Shown in pieces: positions 1-6,779 of a DNA stretch of 6,779 nt. Within the stretch, counting starts at the first letter, position 1. Every line of letters starts with the position of its first letter. Both the position numbers and the translations under genes were made by a program. The notes under the pieces are model-generated. The model had not been told where the DNA came from, searched no databases, and saw nothing but the letters and a program-made list of their open reading frames with translations. The stretch comes from a virus (lineage: Duplodnaviria; Heunggongvirae; Uroviricota; Caudoviricetes): the IMG/VR virus record IMGVR_UViG_2693429713_000022, positions 1 to 6,779 of that record. One strand, written 5' to 3'.

Positions 1-12
1 GGTTTGGGAGAA
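1..12. other. Inner half of a candidate Din-family crossover site (site A); core and outer arm would lie just upstream of the window
   Basis: GGTTTGGGAGAA is the exact reverse complement of the 12-bp arm TTCTCCCAAACC found in sites B and C. Only half the site is visible, so this is provisional. Confidence 0.45.
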
Positions 13-453
13 GCGGCAAAACGAAATGTGGGCAACGGGGAAAACCAAATCCCTGATATGTCTTTCTGGACGGTTACTGGTGGCAATGGAAATTTTGTGA
101 TTCGTCAACCTGACGGGCTAATCATTCAGATGGTTACTGTAAGTATAAGCGGTCCAGTGGCGATGAATGGAATGACTGATAATGCTTATGCCATTACAGG
201 TTCTAATAAGTCTTATATTGCCACAGCCACATTGCCCTTTGTATTTCCTAATAAGGTGCTGGGCGTTATCCCTCTGGTATCAACAACAGCTTATGGTGGT
301 GTATCCAGTAATATTACAGGTTCATACGCGACGGCGGTTTGTTCTTTTGCCGCTGTCAGGGGGAATAATACGATTGTGTTCAAAGTCGACAAACCACTGA
401 ATGCAGCCTTTCCTTCAGATACCAGCGTCTCAGCGTTAATCATTGGACGGTAA
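1..453 (+). CDS. Tail-fibre protein, C-terminal receptor-binding cassette (partial; 5' part of the gene lies upstream of the window); left copy of the inverted repeat
   Basis: Open frame from position 1 (GLGEAAKRNVG...ALIIGR) ending at TAA 451-453, followed 2 nt later by a Tfa-family gene, the usual tail-fibre/chaperone pairing. The same 149 aa are encoded on the minus strand at 2512-2958. Gly/Ser/Thr/Asn-rich composition typical of fibre distal domains. No start codon in the window. Confidence 0.8.
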   Translation, partial: GLGEAAKRNVGNGENQIPDMSFWTVTGGNGNFVIRQPDGLIIQMVTVSISGPVAMNGMTDNAYAITGSNKSYIATATLPFVFPNKVLGVIPLVSTTAYGGVSSNITGSYATAVCSFAAVRGNNTIVFKVDKPLNAAFPSDTSVSALIIGR

Positions 454-455
454 GA

Positions 456-899
456 ATGAACTCAGTATTCTTTTCACCCGCAAGTAAAAGTTTTTATCTG
501 CAAGAATTGTTTCCAGAATATGAGGATGCGGGAACGCTTCCTGATGATGTTATTGAAATTACCAGAGAAACATATGAGCAATTTCTTGGGCTGCATCCAG
601 AAGGGAAAGAAATTGGCGCTGACAGTTCAGGACGGCCAATATGGATTAATTCCCCGCCGCCTTCAAAAGAGGATGAGATGCTGGCGGCTGAAATGAAAAA
701 GATATCTTTGGTTTCAGAAGTCAATACCTACATCAATACCCATCAGTGGCCTGGCAAAGCTGCTATTGGTCGTCTGAAAGGTTACGAGCTGGAACAATAT
801 AATTTATGGCTGGATTATCTGGACGCACTGGAACTGGTTGATACCTCCAGTGCTCCAGATATTGAATGGCCTACGCCTCCGGTAGTTCAGGCCAGATGA
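456..899 (+). CDS. Tail-fibre assembly protein (Tfa family), 147 aa
   Basis: ATG at 456, 2 nt after the fibre stop. C-terminal motif [26 protein letters not shown] resembles the conserved Tfa/Mu-U-type C-terminus and is shared in pattern with the convergent Tfa gene ([28 protein letters not shown]). Its first 54 codons lie inside IR-L. Confidence 0.8.
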   Translation: MNSVFFSPASKSFYLQELFPEYEDAGTLPDDVIEITRETYEQFLGLHPEGKEIGADSSGRPIWINSPPPSKEDEMLAAEMKKISLVSEVNTYINTHQWPGKAAIGRLKGYELEQYNLWLDYLDALELVDTSSAPDIEWPTPPVVQAR

Positions 900-1476
900 C
901 ATCCGGCGCGGTGCTGGTATCTGTTGCAGTCACCGCGTCAATGTAATCCAGCACAGCGTTAAGCCGGGTTGTTTCTGCCTGCGTCAGCTTCCGCCCGGCC
1001 TGCAATTTCAGCTGAATCAGACTAATGGAAGCCATAGCAGCATCAATCAGTGACTGGCGCCGTACTTCTGCCGCGTCTACTGCGGCGTTATGCTGTGCCT
1101 CAGTATCGGTCACCCATTTCTCACCATCCCATTTATCGTATGACGTTAACGGGGCGATAGTGGTTGTATTTTCAGGGTAATCACCCGGAACTGTGATTTC
1201 TTTTGATTCTCCTGTTTCGGTGCTATAGACGATTTCACCGCGATGGTCTGGCACATATTCCCATGAGTTAAAATCTGCAGAACGGCAAATTGCATAACCA
1301 GCTTTATATGAGCCAGGAGCATCTAAACAGGAACATGCCGGGATACCAACACCCACAGCAAGATATTCAGTTGATGTGGAAATATATTCCCGTGTTTCAC
1401 CATCATAATTATAAACGGTAATGTCTCCGGCCTTTGTGGCGATGAGTTCATTATTTAATACAGCTTTACTTATCAT
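871..1476 (-). CDS. Tail-fibre assembly protein (Tfa family), 201 aa, partner of the 253-aa fibre gene
   Basis: Start ATG (minus strand) at 1474-1476 overlaps the TGA stop of the upstream fibre gene as ATGA (1473-1476), suggesting translational coupling. Conserved Tfa C-terminal motif. Its 3' end overlaps the convergent Tfa gene by 29 bp (871-899). Confidence 0.8.
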
Positions 1477-2234
1477 GCAGCCCTCACAATATAATTAAAG
1501 GCGATGTTACGGGAGCGGGTTTCAGATGCTGTGCGAACTGAGCGAGATGCGTCGAATGTCCAGTTATAAGCGCCATAACCCTCAATAATTTCGGCTTCCT
1601 TTAGACCTGTAGATAATACTTGCCCATGTTGACTAAATGGCCCTGAACTAAGTACGTCTCTAAAAAGCTGGGTACGCCCAAAAGAACCAACAATATTCTG
1701 AATTGCATCATTCTGTGCAGATAATAAGTTACGACCAGAGTCAATCCCGCGCCCATCATCCCAGCCACGAATAAATTCACCGCGTAAATCTGGTAATTTT
1801 AATGTTGGGTAAGCCTTTGCCAGATTTGGGTACTTTTCAGAAGAAAATACTGCTCCGTTACATTTTAGCCACCCCGTTGGCGGAGTGGCGGAAGGCCACG
1901 GAACAGGCACACCAACGGGTAATGCCGAACCTTCTCCCAAACCAAGGTTTTCGAGAGCCGTTTTCACCGTGCCATCAGATTTGATATCGCCAAACGGATT
2001 CTTGCGGCTTAACAGCAGCGCACGAAGCGCGGTAAGCAGCTGGTCATGCCGCCCCTTCTCCAGGCTGGCACCGGATGCCTCCACCACGCTGCAGAGTTCT
2101 TCCTGCAACATGTCAAAGTAGTCATCATCCAGATCGGTGGCAGGTGTGCCGGTCTGGGGGTTACCACGGGTAAAACCGTTCTTACCCGCGCCGAACTTAT
2201 CCTTCTGCGCGGTTTTCGTGTCTATACGATGCAT
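1473..2234 (-). CDS. Small tail-fibre protein, 253 aa, with N-terminal fibre-attachment-type motif and phage tail-collar-like domain
   Basis: GGAG ribosome-binding site (plus-strand CTCC 2241-2244) 6 nt upstream of ATG 2232-2234. N-terminus [21 protein letters not shown]...[20 protein letters not shown] resembles conserved tail-fibre N-termini of the Mu S / P2 H type. The segment [12 protein letters not shown]...YPNLAKAYP...[17 protein letters not shown] (about 1746-1901) matches the tail-collar signature as I remember it. Crossover site B lies inside the gene at codons about 93-101. Confidence 0.8.
1932..1957. other. Candidate Din-family (gix/hix/cix/pix-type) 26-bp crossover site B
   Basis: TTCTCCCAAACC-AA-GGTTTTCGAGAG: two 12-bp imperfect inverted arms (9 of 12 positions symmetric) around a 2-bp AA core with the AAACC/GGTTT inner motif. 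It matches the hixL sequence I recall (TTCTTGAAAACCAAGGTTTTTGATAA) at about 20 of 26 positions. It sits at the constant/variable junction of the fibre gene, encoding ...ENLGLGE... on the minus strand. Confidence 0.65.
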
Positions 2235-2257
2235 GGATTACTCCGGATATTTAAAAA

Positions 2258-2509
2258 TTACGTAGGTATGCGAAGGGCAGAGTTTGTTAAGCACACACTC
2301 GACAACGGTGTCGCCCCAGATACGCAGTGCGGAATCACAGGGATCACGCCAATTTCTTTCCCTTCTGGATGCAGCCCAAGAAATTGCTCATATGTTTCTC
2401 TGGTAATTTCAATAACATCATCAGGAAGCGTTCCCGCATCCTCATATTCTGGAAACAATTCTTGCAGATAAAAACTTTTACTTGCGGGTGAAAAGAATAC
2501 TGAGTTCAT
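2258..2509 (-). pseudogene. Truncated Tfa remnant: 54 N-terminal codons from IR-R fused to 29 unrelated codons
   Basis: The first 54 aa are identical to the Tfa gene at 456-617. After the inverted-repeat boundary (2347/2346) the frame continues into unrelated sequence ([29 protein letters not shown]) and stops at 2258-2260, 83 aa total versus 147 aa for the intact copy. Confidence 0.55.
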
Positions 2510-2964
2510 TCTTACCGTCCAATGATTAACGCTGAGACGCTGGTATCTGAAGGAAAGGCTGCATTCAGTGGTTTGTCGACTTTGAACACAATCGTATTAT
2601 TCCCCCTGACAGCGGCAAAAGAACAAACCGCCGTCGCGTATGAACCTGTAATATTACTGGATACACCACCATAAGCTGTTGTTGATACCAGAGGGATAAC
2701 GCCCAGCACCTTATTAGGAAATACAAAGGGCAATGTGGCTGTGGCAATATAAGACTTATTAGAACCTGTAATGGCATAAGCATTATCAGTCATTCCATTC
2801 ATCGCCACTGGACCGCTTATACTTACAGTAACCATCTGAATGATTAGCCCGTCAGGTTGACGAATCACAAAATTTCCATTGCCACCAGTAACCGTCCAGA
2901 AAGACATATCAGGGATTTGGTTTTCCCCGTTGCCCACATTTCGTTTTGCCGCTTCTCCCAAACC
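2347..2964. repeat. Inverted repeat, right copy (IR-R), partner of 1-618
   Basis: See IR-L. The outer end at 2964 is set by the window start (position 1 pairs with 2964) and coincides with the end of the 12-bp arm of crossover site C, so the repeat may end at the recombination site. Confidence 0.9.
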
Positions 2965-3006
2965 AACGTTTATGAAAATGCAGAAATAACGAGCAAATGG
3001 CATCAT
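2512..3006 (-). CDS. Tail-fibre C-terminal cassette, pin-proximal copy; apparently lacks an N-terminal constant part in this orientation (silent or fragment cassette)
   Basis: Encodes the same 149 aa as 1-453 on the minus strand. The ORF extends only 14 codons beyond crossover site C to an ATG at 3004-3006 (MMPFARYFCIFINV...) with no fibre-like N-terminal domain. This resembles the short fibre fragment gene next to pin in e14, as I recall it. Confidence 0.6.
   Translation of the reverse strand: MMPFARYFCIFINVGLGEAAKRNVGNGENQIPDMSFWTVTGGNGNFVIRQPDGLIIQMVTVSISGPVAMNGMTDNAYAITGSNKSYIATATLPFVFPNKVLGVIPLVSTTAYGGVSSNITGSYATAVCSFAAVRGNNTIVFKVDKPLNAAFPSDTSVSALIIGR
2953..2978. other. Candidate Din-family crossover site C, next to the invertase gene
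   Basis: TTCTCCCAAACC-AA-CGTTTATGAAAA: left arm and AA core identical to site B, right arm more degenerate. It lies 55 bp upstream of the invertase start, the position where gix/cix-type sites sit relative to gin/cin. On the minus strand it encodes ...INVGLGE... in the same frame as site B. Confidence 0.6.
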
Positions 3007-3032
3007 TCCTGCTTTTGTCAGGGAGATCTACC

Positions 3033-3587
3033 ATGCTTATTGGCTATGTACGTGTGTCAACAAATGACCAGAACACAGATCTACAACGTAATGCGCTGAA
3101 CTGTGCAGGATGCGAGCTGATTTTTGAAGACAAGATAAGCGGTACAAAGTCCGAAAGGCCGGGACTGAAAAAACTGCTCAGGACATTATCGGCAGGCGAT
3201 ACGCTGGTGGTCTGGAAACTGGACCGACTGGGGCGCAGTATGCGGCATCTTGTCGTGCTGGTGGAGGAGTTGCGCGAACGAGGCATCAACTTTCGTAGTC
3301 TGACGGATTCAATTGATACCAGTACCCCAATGGGGCGCTTTTTCTTTCATGTGATGGGGGCCCTGGCTGAAATGGAACGAGAACTGATTGTTGAACGAAC
3401 AAAAGCTGGACTGGAAGCTGCTCGCGCACAGGGACGAATTGGTGGACGTCGTCCCAAACTTACACCAGAACAATGGGCACAAGCCGGACGATTAATTGCA
3501 TCAGGAGTTCCGCGCCAGAAAGTTGCGATTATCTATGATGTTGGCGTATCGACTTTGTATCAGAGGTTTCCGGCAGGAGATAAATAA
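3033..3587 (+). CDS. pin: Serine DNA invertase of the Pin/Gin/Cin/Hin (Din) family, 184 aa
   Basis: N-terminus MLIGYVRVSTNDQNTDLQRNAL is the hallmark Din-invertase start, with the catalytic serine at residue 9 (codon 3057-3059). The rest is near-collinear with Gin/Cin as I remember them (GDTLVVWKLDRLGRSM, GRFFFHVMGALAEMERELI, and a C-terminal HTH region GVPRQKVAIIYDVGVSTLYQRF). GGGAG ribosome-binding site at 3021-3025, 7 nt before the ATG. The track ORF starts at 2997, but 3033 is the supported start. Family assignment is confident; the pin symbol is by context (e14-like neighbours), not proven orthology. Confidence 0.93.
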   Translation: MLIGYVRVSTNDQNTDLQRNALNCAGCELIFEDKISGTKSERPGLKKLLRTLSAGDTLVVWKLDRLGRSMRHLVVLVEELRERGINFRSLTDSIDTSTPMGRFFFHVMGALAEMERELIVERTKAGLEAARAQGRIGGRRPKLTPEQWAQAGRLIASGVPRQKVAIIYDVGVSTLYQRFPAGDK

Positions 3588-3785
3588 AGACACAGCTCGT
3601 CGAATTCAAGAACGTGTGAGCCAATCTCATGATGATTCATTATTTTCACATAGAGTCAATGACAAAAAACGGCTGCAAGGTAAACCACAACGATGGCTTT
3701 GTTAATTGATAGCGGTTTTGGTACTAAATGATACAAATTAAAATGAATATCCTAGTGAATTACAACAATTTCAGGAGGAAATAGT

Positions 3786-3998
3786 ATGCCAAGAAAAACG
3801 CTAGAAAATTTGGTAAATGTTGCACGTCAGACTCAGGAAATAGCGGATAAGAGAAGCCGTTTTTTCGGGTATCTTGAACAGCATGGCTTGAAGAGGAATG
3901 AGGATAGTGCTCACCTTTTTGCTATGCATTTACGGTTGCAACACAATGAAAGAGATAATCTTGTCCATGAACTGATGTCCGGATTACATCATAAATAG
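3786..3998 (+). CDS. Hypothetical small protein, 70 aa, basic and His-rich; function unknown
   Basis: Strong AGGAGG ribosome-binding site at 3773-3778, 7 nt before ATG 3786. AT-rich. Convergent with the two-gene operon. I recognise no family. Confidence 0.5.
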   Translation: MPRKTLENLVNVARQTQEIADKRSRFFGYLEQHGLKRNEDSAHLFAMHLRLQHNERDNLVHELMSGLHHK

Positions 3999-4032
3999 TG
4001 CATCATTCGAGCAAGAATATTATAAGACAATA

Positions 4033-4055
4033 AACCAGCCAAAAACTGGCTGGTT
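4033..4055. terminator. Candidate bidirectional intrinsic terminator between convergent genes
   Basis: Hairpin AACCAGCC(A)-loop-(T)GGCTGGTT with an 8-9 bp stem, flanked by T-rich sequence on the minus-strand side (TATTGTCTTATAAT) and a TTTTT run 10 nt away on the plus-strand side. Lies between the 70-aa gene stop (3998) and the 114-aa gene stop (4083). U tracts are imperfect. Confidence 0.5.
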
Positions 4056-4082
4056 GAACGTTAACTTTTTGAATTTAATCAA

Positions 4083-4427
4083 TTAACTTTGGTGTATGTC
4101 TTGGTAAGTCTCATCCGTCAGAGCCAATTTCATGCAAATATCATCGTTAAGACTGACAATATCTTCGATCAGTTTATTGATCTCGAAATCGTTAAGTTTT
4201 GATACTGTTGCTTGAACTCGCCCCTCATCGCCAGTGGCATCAAACTTAGTCAGTTCCTTACATAATTCATCGAACCTGCTTTGTAAGGCATTTGGAATAT
4301 CATCGGCTGTTTTAAGATGCCCAAGGCTAAAAACATACGAATTAATCAAGCGTTCTTGAATACTTCCATGGCCCGCAAGAGTAAGTACTGCAGTATGAAA
4401 TTTTTCATGTGCATACTTTAAGGACAT
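4083..4427 (-). CDS. Hypothetical protein, 114 aa, mildly acidic; second gene of the cargo operon
   Basis: GGAGA ribosome-binding site (plus-strand TCTCC 4434-4438) 6 nt before ATG 4425-4427. Lies 51 bp downstream of the 343-aa gene on the same strand. AT-rich. No recognisable motif. Confidence 0.6.
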   Translation of the reverse strand: MSLKYAHEKFHTAVLTLAGHGSIQERLINSYVFSLGHLKTADDIPNALQSRFDELCKELTKFDATGDEGRVQATVSKLNDFEINKLIEDIVSLNDDICMKLALTDETYQDIHQS

Positions 4428-4478
4428 ATCTGGTCTCCGTGACTTATAACCTCAACCGACATAAATGGGGTTAAGTGA

Positions 4479-5510
4479 TTATTCTGAAACAATAGTGTTG
4501 AACTGACCTATAGAAACAGCACCCTTTTCAATTACCTCTAAGTAACTGATTTTAATATGAGAGTTGTTTGACAAAGCGTCAACAATAGCTGTCAACTCAT
4601 CTTGGGTGATAACATCAGCTGAAGCTTTGATTGTGAAGCATTCGTCATTAGAGACCCTAACAACGTTAATATTAATATCCTGATTTGTTGGCCCTGTTCT
4701 GGTTACACCTTTGATGGAAAATATATCAGTTCGTTCTTTACGTTCTCTATCTACAGATTGTCGGCTGTTGTAGGTATTTAGGTCTTGTCGTGTTAGTTTC
4801 TCATTTCCTAAAGTCACGGTTTCGACAGTAGGATCAGCAGCTAATTGCTTCACTAAAGCACTTTTACCTGCTTGTCCGTGACTAGTAACTTTATCGCTAA
4901 TCGCTGATTTCCCATAGATTTTATAATCTAATGTTGCTTCTATGGCTTTGTTTATGCCATCGGATGTGGTTTTTGCAATTTCAACCTGCCGATCAGTTGC
5001 ATGTCTTTCTGTTACGGCATTTTCTGAAATGTAGTGATAACCACATGTGCTGGCCGCGCCAACCATTGTGATTATAACAAGCATTTTCTGCCAGCCGTTC
5101 AGTCCAGACATAGTATCTCGCAAAAAATCAGTTACTGCGTTGATGATCTTGTCAGTGGTGCCTTCCGCATCACTAGAACCTTCGCTAATTTTAAAATTTA
5201 TATCAAGTCGTTGCTTGTCTTCATTAGTCAAGCGTTGAAGATTCTGCGATCCGTATCGTATGGTTGCAAACGCCCGCTGTATCTCCTCGTTGAGCATTGA
5301 CATACCAAACAACATTGCTGATGTAATTGATGAATGATACCGCTCTCCTTTTACATTTATGTCTAAGGATGGCCAGCCTGCAAACTTTACGTTAGGGAAA
5401 ATAAACTCTTTAGAATCAAGCCCCTCTCGGGCTTTCATTTCTTCCAGAAAGTTTAGAAAATCATCTTCACTACGGATCAGAAAATCAATCGAATCCACAG
5501 TAGCTTCCAT
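4479..5510 (-). CDS. Hypothetical protein, 343 aa, with a central hydrophobic (possible membrane) segment; first gene of the cargo operon
   Basis: Long ORF in an AT-rich region. AAGGA ribosome-binding site (plus-strand TCCTT 5518-5522) 7 nt before ATG 5508-5510. Hydrophobic stretch GWQKMLVIITMVGAASTCGYHYI at about residues 139-161 (roughly 5028-5096). No catalytic motif I can name. Confidence 0.75.
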   Translation of the reverse strand: MEATVDSIDFLIRSEDDFLNFLEEMKAREGLDSKEFIFPNVKFAGWPSLDINVKGERYHSSITSAMLFGMSMLNEEIQRAFATIRYGSQNLQRLTNEDKQRLDINFKISEGSSDAEGTTDKIINAVTDFLRDTMSGLNGWQKMLVIITMVGAASTCGYHYISENAVTERHATDRQVEIAKTTSDGINKAIEATLDYKIYGKSAISDKVTSHGQAGKSALVKQLAADPTVETVTLGNEKLTRQDLNTYNSRQSVDRERKERTDIFSIKGVTRTGPTNQDININVVRVSNDECFTIKASADVITQDELTAIVDALSNNSHIKISYLEVIEKGAVSIGQFNTIVSE

Positions 5511-5560
5511 ATGAATATCCTTATTAAATTCTCATTCGGTTACTGTTTATTGTTGACTGA

Positions 5561-5589
5561 TCAATAAAAAAGCCCGCAATTTGCGGGCT
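5561..5589 (-). terminator. Rho-independent terminator on the minus strand, downstream of ssrA and directly upstream of the cargo operon
   Basis: Minus strand reads GCCCGCAA-ATT-TTGCGGGC (stem from 5571-5589) followed by TTTTTTATTGA (5570-5561). Confidence 0.65.
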
Positions 5590-5719
5590 TCTTTCACACT
5601 TGAGAGCCGCGGCTCCTTTGCGTATCCTTTTTTGTCTCCTCACCGTCTGGTCGGTGTCCTGCTGAGACTGCTAACTTCCTGTTTTTGTTGGTGTTGTCCT
5701 TACACCGTCCAATCATGAT

Positions 5720-6082
5720 TGGTGGAGCTGGCGGGAGTTGAACCCGCGTCCGAAATTCCTACATCCTCGGTACTACATGCTTAGTCAGTCTTTACATTCG
5801 CTTGCCAGCTGCGGACGGACACGCCACTAACAAACTAGCCTGATTAAGTTTTAACGCTTCAACCCCAGGCAGGGCTTCCACGCGATCTCTTTTGGGTTTG
5901 ACCTCTCTTGATCCCCGTCCTAAGAGCGGAGGCTAGGGAGAGAGGGCTCTAAGCAGGTTATTAAGCTGCTAAAGCGTAGTTTTCGTCGTTTGCGACTATT
6001 TTTTGCGGCTTTTTACGAGGCCAACCGCCCCTCGGCATGCACCTTGGGTTTCGCAAATCCCGTCGAATCCAGAATCAGCCCC
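5720..6082 (-). ncRNA. ssrA: tmRNA (SsrA), 363 nt
   Basis: Reverse complement of 6059-6082 is GGGGCTGATTCTGGATTCGACGGG (tmRNA 5' end) and of 5720-5760 ends ...GGGTTCAACTCCCGCCAGCTCCACCA (tRNA-like 3' end with CCA). The tag reading frame GCAAACGACGAAAACTACGCTTTAGCAGCTTAA (ANDENYALAA-stop) is the reverse complement of 5961-5993. Matches the E. coli-type tmRNA as I remember it along its length. Confidence 0.95.
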
Positions 6083-6096
6083 AATGTGTAAAGGTA

Positions 6097-6102
6097 AGTA
6101 TA
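6097..6102 (-). promoter_or_regulatory. Possible -10 element (TATACT) of the ssrA promoter
   Basis: TATACT on the minus strand about 14 nt upstream of the mature tmRNA 5' end, consistent with a short processed leader. I found no convincing -35, so this is tentative. Confidence 0.3.
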
Positions 6103-6296
6103 CCAGATTTATGAGCGCCATGACCAGCCTCAATGGCGTTATCGTTAAAGATTTAGCACCCATGTAGCCTGATTTTTATTCGATTAAGCAATGGGATGGC
6201 AACATTTGTGTCGGATGTGATAGCCAATAAGATGTTGATTCGCGCCGCCGGAGAGGGAGGCGCGGTGAGGAACTGGTCAATAATTGGAGTGCAGGT

Positions 6297-6779
6297 TTAA
6301 CGGTGGGCGTTTTTCATGATACGTGCTTTATCCACCTGCCATTCGCGTTCTTTGATATCTGAACGTTTATCGTGCTGTTTTTTACCTTTGGCGACGCCGA
6401 TTTTCACTTTGCACCAGGCATTTTTCCAGTACAGGGAGAGCGCCACTACGGTATAGCCTTCTCGATTGACGCGACCGTACAATGAGTCCAGTTCGCGCTG
6501 GTTGAGAAGTAACTTGCGGGTACGGGTAGGATCGCACACCACATGCGTGGAGGCCACGGCCATTGGCGTGATGTTAGCGCCAAACAGAAATGCCTCTCCG
6601 TCACGCAGAAGGACGTAGCTGTCGCTGATATTGGCTTTTCCTGCGCGCAGGGATTTAACCTCCCAGCCTTGCAGGGCAAGTCCCGCTTCGAACTCTTCTT
6701 CGATAAAGTATTCGTGACGGGCGCGCTTGTTAAGCGCGATGGTCGCTGAACCAGGTTTATGTGCTTTTTTCTTCGTCAT
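6297..6779 (-). CDS. smpB: SsrA-binding protein SmpB, 160 aa
   Basis: Full-length [75 protein letters not shown]... with the start codon at the last three bases of the window (6777-6779). Directly upstream of ssrA on the same strand, the canonical smpB-ssrA arrangement. Confidence 0.95.

Follow-up and report, generated by a model that had tools for sequence, protein, structure and literature searches.

A Pin-type tail-fibre switch of the e14 family, with a possible duplicated third crossover site, in a prophage remnant beside ssrA

Introduction

DNA invertases make staggered cuts at the core of their crossover sites and exchange the strands by subunit rotation, in a reaction that depends on Fis and on an enhancer. 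In the Gin/Hin type, deletion between directly repeated sites is strongly disfavoured. The C segment of P1, which is inverted by Cin, is bounded by inverted repeats of about 0.6 kb with crossover sites at their outer ends, an arrangement that the 618-bp arms described below resemble, while the Min system of p15B has multiple sites. The P segment of e14 and its invertase Pin were reportedly described in 1985.

In K-12, the e14 P segment is 1,797 bp long and is inverted by PinE, PinQ and PinR, which use the repeat TTGGTTTGGGAGAAGG inside stfP and stfE (PMC12529663). The published inversion inside both coding regions makes chimeric genes (PMC12529663, PMC4272514), and stable orientation heterogeneity at e14 has been measured in K-12 cultures (PMC4272514); the reference list of that study includes Plasterk and van de Putte (1985) and Mehta et al. 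(2004). The e14/Pin system is still under study, as in the 2025 work on PinQ and StfE2, where StfE2, the K-12 leader plus gp53-like product, is reported to block phage T2 adsorption (PMC12529663). A more elaborate case is the P2-like module of EPEC E2348/69, with three repeats and four variants, in which three sites and one invertase allow nested inversions and give three different C-termini to one constant part (Goldberg et al. 2014, PMC4272514).

Here we describe a 6,779-bp stretch of tailed-phage DNA (the window) in which an initial annotation had noted paired junctions in tail-fibre genes. The mechanism is already known, being that of the e14 P segment with Pin, and the sole unusual feature is a putative duplicated third site. 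It is very probable that the two complete sites of the window, B and C, are the left- and right-type sites of an e14-type P segment acted on by Pin, the third site being best explained by a 1,021-bp duplication followed by inversions.

Fibre cassettes, chaperones and invertase

The fibre region contains the following features:

1-453, plus strand: variable cassette SvA, a gp53-like fibre C-terminus (GLGEAAKRNVG...IIGR; Gp53-like_C match)
456-899, plus strand: tfaA, tail-fibre assembly chaperone for SvA (Caudo_TAP, 6.4e-27)
871-1476, minus strand: tfaB, tail-fibre assembly chaperone for SvB (Caudo_TAP, 6e-32)
1473-2234, minus strand: 253-aa fibre gene with Collar domain, constant part plus SvB
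1473-1943, minus strand: variable cassette SvB, the collar-domain C-terminus (...RAA), currently joined to the constant part
1946-2234, minus strand: constant N-terminal part of the StfP/YcfK type (MHRID...TALEN plus L; 96 codons at the 5' end of the 253-aa gene), matching K-12 StfP
2512-3006, minus strand: pin-proximal ORF of 164 aa, a 14-codon leader plus a second SvA copy, built like K-12 StfE2
2512-2964, minus strand: the second, identical SvA copy, within the 2512-3006 ORF
3033-3587, plus strand: pin, serine DNA invertase of the Gin/Hin/Cin/Pin group, 184 aa (Resolvase 1.5e-51 and HTH_7 3.6e-13)

The PHROG matches of the 253-aa protein split at about residue 100. The constant part is identical to K-12 StfP/YcfK at 102 of 105 residues (97%), with the identity stopping just past GLGE, and SvB carries the Collar domain (PF07484) at residues 108-155 (Pfam, 2.9e-15). 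SvA matches Gp53-like_C with an E-value of 3.6e-05 and 24.6 bits, slightly below the 24.9-bit cutoff. Only two different tips exist, as the cassettes at sites A and C are identical. The crossover site lies at the constant/variable boundary of the tail-fibre gene, each cassette has its own chaperone downstream, and the fusions are in frame. On the pin-proximal side, positions 2967-3006 of the minus strand supply a leader of 14 codons with its own ATG (MMPFARYFCIFINV), so that a parked cassette always forms a full ORF. The constant part sits between sites B and C on the minus strand and points away from pin, which is a non-canonical layout.

The block formed by SvB and tfaB (819-1955) is also found, at about 90% identity, in the side-tail-fibre genes of HK97 and HK106, with only stf and tfa annotated under the match. 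This match stops at 1955, within site B, so the crossover-site sequence is a module boundary there too.

Pin itself has the build of a small serine recombinase, with an N-terminal resolvase catalytic domain, a C-terminal HTH and a gene lying beside the segment. The gene is intact, and 67 bp separate its ATG from the site C core. The protein is identical to K-12 PinE at 180 of 184 residues (98%), and the first 260 nt of the gene match K-12 pinE at 249 positions. A shufflon of the Rci type, with a tyrosine recombinase and 19-bp sfx repeats, was considered and ruled out, since a serine resolvase/invertase and 26-bp Din-type sites are present here. A Fis-dependent recombinational enhancer is expected in cis within the 5' part of an invertase gene; a motif scan of pin returned G-N13-C candidates common to pin, pinE, Mu gin and the pro483 invertase, a pattern too degenerate to assign the enhancer.

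The closest described relative is e14, in which the gene order is the same as here (ymfQ, fibre and tfa, then tfa, orphan tip and pin; in K-12 stfP/ycfK, tfaP, tfaE, stfE and pinE). Both 26-bp sites are base-identical between the two elements, which also share the Pin and constant-part identities of 98% and 97% given above, and the first 15 residues of the collar-type cassette SvB are the same as in K-12 stfE. The two differ in position, e14 being near icd and the window element near ssrA, and in their pin-distal cargo, which is mcrA in e14 and three ORFs of unknown function here. The gp53-like cassette also differs in allele (GLGEAAKRNVG here and GLGEGAKLNAA in e14), and the third site, the second SvA copy and the reversed constant part are found here only.

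The crossover sites and their reading frame

Three sites, of which one is partial, are found in the window (a slash marks the crossover point in protein sequences):

1-12, plus strand: site A, represented by the inner half-site GGTTTGGGAGAA alone, as its core and outer half-site precede position 1
1932-1957, minus strand: site B, pixL type (constant/variable junction), 26 bp, core 1944-1945, ENL/GLGE
2953-2978, minus strand: site C, pixR type (pin-proximal), 26 bp, core 2965-2966

Read on the minus strand from 1957 to 1932, site B parses as CTCTCGAAAACC TT GGTTTGGGAGAA, and site C, from 2978 to 2953, as TTTTCATAAACG TT GGTTTGGGAGAA, that is 12 + 2 + 12 bp in each case. Both therefore have the 26-bp Din-type architecture of imperfectly symmetric 12-bp half-sites around a 2-bp core. 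Translation of the minus strand from 1979 to 1914 gives ...TALENL/GLGE... at site B, and from 3006 to 2935 it gives MMPFARYFCIFINVGLGEAAKRNV at site C, which is MMPFARYFCIFINV/GLGEAAKRNV. The core TT forms nucleotides 2 and 3 of CTT (Leu; plus-strand positions 1944-1945) in site B and of GTT (Val; 2965-2966) in site C, and in both sites GGT TTG GGA GAA, or GLGE, directly follows the core codon. The proposals that B and C encode GLGE in one frame and that the 2-bp core occupies codon positions 2-3 just before it are thus borne out by the translations. The same holds for the plus-strand GLGEAAK frame proposed to run from position 1: positions 1-60 translate as GLGEAAKRNVGNGENQIPDM, which begins GLGEAAKRNV.

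The shared GLGE junction is no chance match. The 15-mer TTGGTTTGGGAGAAG, common to B and C, occurs twice in the window where 0.01 occurrences are expected, and none of 200 shuffles contained it at least twice. Site B is base-identical to positions 3779-3804 of the K-12 e14 sequence (...VQTALENL/GLGE in stfP/ycfK), and site C to positions 5606-5631 (...FFIFINV/GLGE in stfE). GLGE is therefore what the invariant inner half-site GGTTTGGGAGAA encodes when read in frame. Because this half-site, which lies within the invertible DNA, must match at both ends of the segment and is read as GLGE where each variable cassette begins, the junctions all look alike.

The G segment of phage Mu, where Gin chooses between S/U and S'/U', has the same 12 + 2 + 12 bp architecture in its gix sites and the same gene order, with the invertase beside the right-hand site. 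The suggested comparison with Mu S confirms that the frame is shared: in both S and S' the junction reads ATC CAA AAC CTC GGT TTA CAG GAA, and the core TC forms nucleotides 2 and 3 of a Leu codon. The Mu junction is thus IQNL/GLQE, and the shared pattern is a Leu codon followed by G-L-x-E. Mu differs from the window in its core (TC against TT), in other half-site details, in a much longer constant part and in being a functional phage.

P2-like elements carry the same tips on another fibre. The P2-like phage pro483 has the same inner half-site, the TT core, the right-hand site and related SvB/tfa cassettes at 87% DNA identity, but its constant part is of the P2 H type (...LLAYL/GLGE) and its outer left half-site is TTCTCGCATACC. 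In P2-like prophages (loci L004, L008, L010 and L012 at about 1916-1998, and L026 at 1807-1832), the same cassettes sit on an H-type fibre of 444-515 aa, where the left site is TTCTC(A/G)CATACC-TT-GGTTTGGGAGAA (...LL(T/A)YL/GLGE). The tips are thus common to Mu-like, e14-like and P2-like tails.

Orientation of the sites and the outcome of each exchange

Comparison of the repeats within the window shows that B and C are direct repeats spaced by 1,021 bp. Site A alone has the opposite orientation to these two, bases 1-13 being exactly the inverted complement of 1931-1943. The core of A precedes the window; the ten draft contigs with the same edge product, among the matches listed, show TT at the core before the inner half-site. 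Sites A and C form the outer ends of a perfect inverted repeat of 618 bp (arms 1-618 and 2347-2964, 100% complementary).

By analogy with the family, Pin would cut the core in a staggered fashion and rotate the strands, so that the DNA between two inverted sites would flip. The 96-codon constant part (MHRID...ENL) would then be joined either to the collar-domain tip with tfaB or to the gp53-like tip with tfaA, and the unused tip would be parked beside pin behind the 14-codon leader. In the window, the inversion partner of B is A, and the productive swap is A x B, which would convert the 253-aa gene into a 247-aa Const-SvA gene followed by tfaA. An A x C exchange alters no protein, because both sites end a 618-bp perfect inverted repeat.

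The initial annotation had predicted in-frame swapping of C-terminal domains by exchange at the 2-bp core, which can be read as an exchange between B and C. The principle holds, since the predicted Const-SvA fusion is the gene of strain CD45 and both orientations exist in nature, but the choice of partners does not. Their cores and inner half-sites are identical, as a swap between B and C would need; as direct repeats, however, B and C would upon exchange excise 1,021 bp together with the constant part and the second SvA copy, swapping no domain and leaving leader-SvB. The predicted deletion product (window 1-1950 joined to 2952-6779) is exactly the CD45 arrangement, contiguous. Such a deletion is also strongly disfavoured in Gin/Hin-type invertases, as known for the family, and we consider a swap of C-termini through recombination of B with C to be extremely unlikely. 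The constant N-terminus likewise does join variable tips at the core as had been proposed, but it is not confined to a hypothetical gene upstream, since the window itself carries that part as the opening 96 codons of its 253-aa gene.

Inversion at the same locus in other strains

In-frame swapping occurs in nature at this locus. Two strains, CD45 and 602687, both carry the same ssrA-linked remnant as the window, in opposite arrangements. In CD45 the order is ymfQ, Const-SvA (247 aa) and tfaA, then tfaB, leader-SvB and pin; in 602687 it is ymfQ, Const-SvB (253 aa) and tfaB, then tfaA, leader-SvA and pin. Over the 6,625 bp from ymfQ to smpB, the sole differences between the two are the inversion of 1,943 bp between the cores and one SNP. 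The recombinant junctions whose translation in silico had been proposed as a check agree with this: the 247-aa Const-SvA product assembled from window sequence is the same protein as that of the annotated CD45 gene. All four junction types are present in complete E. coli genomes. Probes of 80 nt, whose genome counts include related alleles, found Const-SvB in 554, Const-SvA in 783, leader-SvA in 952 and leader-SvB in 763 of 5,426 such genomes. This evidence for inversion comes from strains other than the source strain (CD45, 602687 and the complete genomes).

One could argue that GLGE is merely an inherited, conserved tail-fibre motif and that the sites are relics which no longer recombine here. 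The side-tail-fibre genes of HK97 and HK106 share the SvB block up to 1955, into the site sequence, and the element is decayed, being truncated by IS3 in its closest relatives. Against this, pin is intact at a distance of 67 bp, the sites have the same sequence as those experimentally inverted in K-12, and two near-identical remnants at the same locus differ by exactly a core-to-core inversion. We therefore hold the relic explanation to be very unlikely, and take the sites to be those of an e14-type switch.

The third site and a possible duplicated segment

What sets the window apart is its third site, which on the duplication model came with a duplicated constant part. Three features would mark the duplication:

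2238-2346, minus strand: ymfQ 3' fragment of 109 nt (Mu gp48-like baseplate gene), severed at the duplication junction, the ymfQ end lying 3 nt before the fibre ATG
2346-2347, no strand: novel junction with 1-3 nt of microhomology, at which tfaA codon 55 meets the ymfQ 3' fragment, marking the 1,021-bp duplication
2258-2509, minus strand: truncated tfaA' copy, 55 native codons and then read-through into the ymfQ fragment, an 83-aa chimeric ORF

Positions 1931-2347 of the window are the reverse complement of 11707-12123 of the CD45 locus (L001). The whole window consists of 602687 positions 7276-9622 in reverse complement (100% identity), joined to 602687 positions 9001-13437. A simulation that started from CD45 traces one path to this structure. 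The stretch 11708-12728 of L001 was duplicated in tandem (ymfQ 3' end, constant part, left site, SvA and the first 55 codons of tfaA), after which the right site was recombined with the inner left site and then with the outer left site. The duplication and the two inversions reproduce all 6,779 bases with one mismatch, position 4764, which is a synonymous difference from CD45 common to many loci. The length of the duplicated unit equals the spacing from B to C, 1,021 bp. Under this model ...GCTCTCGAAAACCTT, a second constant part in frame, should precede position 1.

Two other origins were rejected. Had a simple fold-back or inverted duplication placed another pin left of A, the perfect repeat would run past the site, yet it ends exactly at the core. 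Integration of a 1,021-bp circle as a separate explanation gives the same structure as the tandem duplication and needs an extra step.

The competing possibility is that the three-site layout is an assembly artefact. The contig would then be a wrong walk through repeats in which site A is B or C seen in the other orientation, and the true locus would have two sites in a population of mixed orientation, or the cassette would be repeated across several prophages. Several observations fit this. The index of the assembly collection lists the partial product GLGEAAK... in 1,479 blocks, mostly in contigs shorter than 2 kb, and all ten of the contigs listed have it at the contig edge, starting with TT GGTTTGGGAGAA. 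Those draft assemblies break exactly at the crossover point, given that the listed contigs begin at the core TT, and the window starts 2 nt past that point. The cassettes are common to P2-like, Mu-like and e14-like prophages. The 2346/2347 junction was not found in the 5,426 complete E. coli genomes, the GTDB species representatives or the JGI metagenome contigs, nor is the 83-aa chimeric ORF on record in the assembly collection. All ten of the contexts listed for the identical 253-aa fibre protein are canonical two-site ones. As none of these sets contained the junction and the window apparently starts at a contig edge, the assembler's path through the repeats could account for the order of the pieces, and even for the third site.

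The 2346/2347 join itself speaks against an artefact. It has only 1-3 nt of shared sequence, and neither site-specific inversion nor k-mer overlap can produce it, so that reads carrying the join must exist. A duplication in at least part of the sequenced population is hence the better reading, and one towards which we lean modestly. The join still leaves room for a wrong order of the repeat copies: the window form and the form with the duplication plus one inversion, which is the window with its A-C segment flipped, contain the same junctions. The layout as a whole, in which a 1,021-bp tandem duplication of the left site and constant part was then flipped by Pin, is accordingly plausible, though we stop slightly short of favouring it, and an artefact of assembly seems unlikely without being negligible.

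If the three-site layout is real, it would capture a two-site fibre switch on its way to becoming a multi-site module that resembles a shufflon. Two full fibre genes would be encoded at the locus, together with the pin-proximal ORF of leader and gp53-like cassette, built like StfE2, and the duplicated copies, now being inverted, could no longer be removed by homologous recombination. The locus is nevertheless distinct from a multi-site Din module with more than two C-termini for one constant part, as the cassettes at A and C are identical and the third site came with the duplicated constant part. The EPEC module offers three different C-termini, whereas two of the three cassettes in the window are identical and add no diversity.

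The genomic neighbourhood

Beyond pin, the window continues into the ssrA region with these features:

3786-3998, plus strand: ORF of 70 aa
4083-4427, minus strand: ORF of 114 aa
4479-5510, minus strand: ORF of 343 aa, phrog_6191 only (function unknown)
5720-6082, minus strand: ssrA (tmRNA gene)
6297-6779, minus strand: smpB

The three ORFs between pin and ssrA have no Pfam or PADLOC match. They are kept beside ssrA in many E. coli genomes, even in those without the fibre region and with a truncated pin. In the gap that separates the 343-aa ORF from the ssrA 3' end, at 5566-5592, a GC-rich hairpin with T's after it (aaaaaagcccgcaatttgcgggcttcttt) looks like a terminator at the boundary of the island and ssrA.

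In the closest complete genomes, a tail module of the Mu/e14 type is left beside ssrA, and some strains have the full prophage tail region. The nearest relatives hold a remnant that IS3 cuts off just upstream of ymfQ and that lacks most tail genes. Because the element is a prophage remnant beside ssrA without most tail genes in its nearest relatives, the switch probably serves no virion now, and probably no longer changes the host range of one. By analogy with the e14 StfE2, a host-level role is possible for the 164-aa ORF made of the leader and the gp53-like cassette.

Concluding remarks

A reading of the sequence by itself was able to find a real site-specific recombination switch. Since short-read assemblies break exactly at the 2-bp core, as in all ten of the draft contigs listed, contig edges are a cheap marker of invertible DNA, and edges that fall at the core could mark invertible or multi-copy cassettes. 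A single GLGE joint connects interchangeable tips to the unrelated constant parts of Mu-like and P2-like prophages, and side-fibre genes of the HK97 type share the collar block up to that same joint. The duplicated third site, if real, would illustrate one way in which inversion modules with multiple sites could come about.
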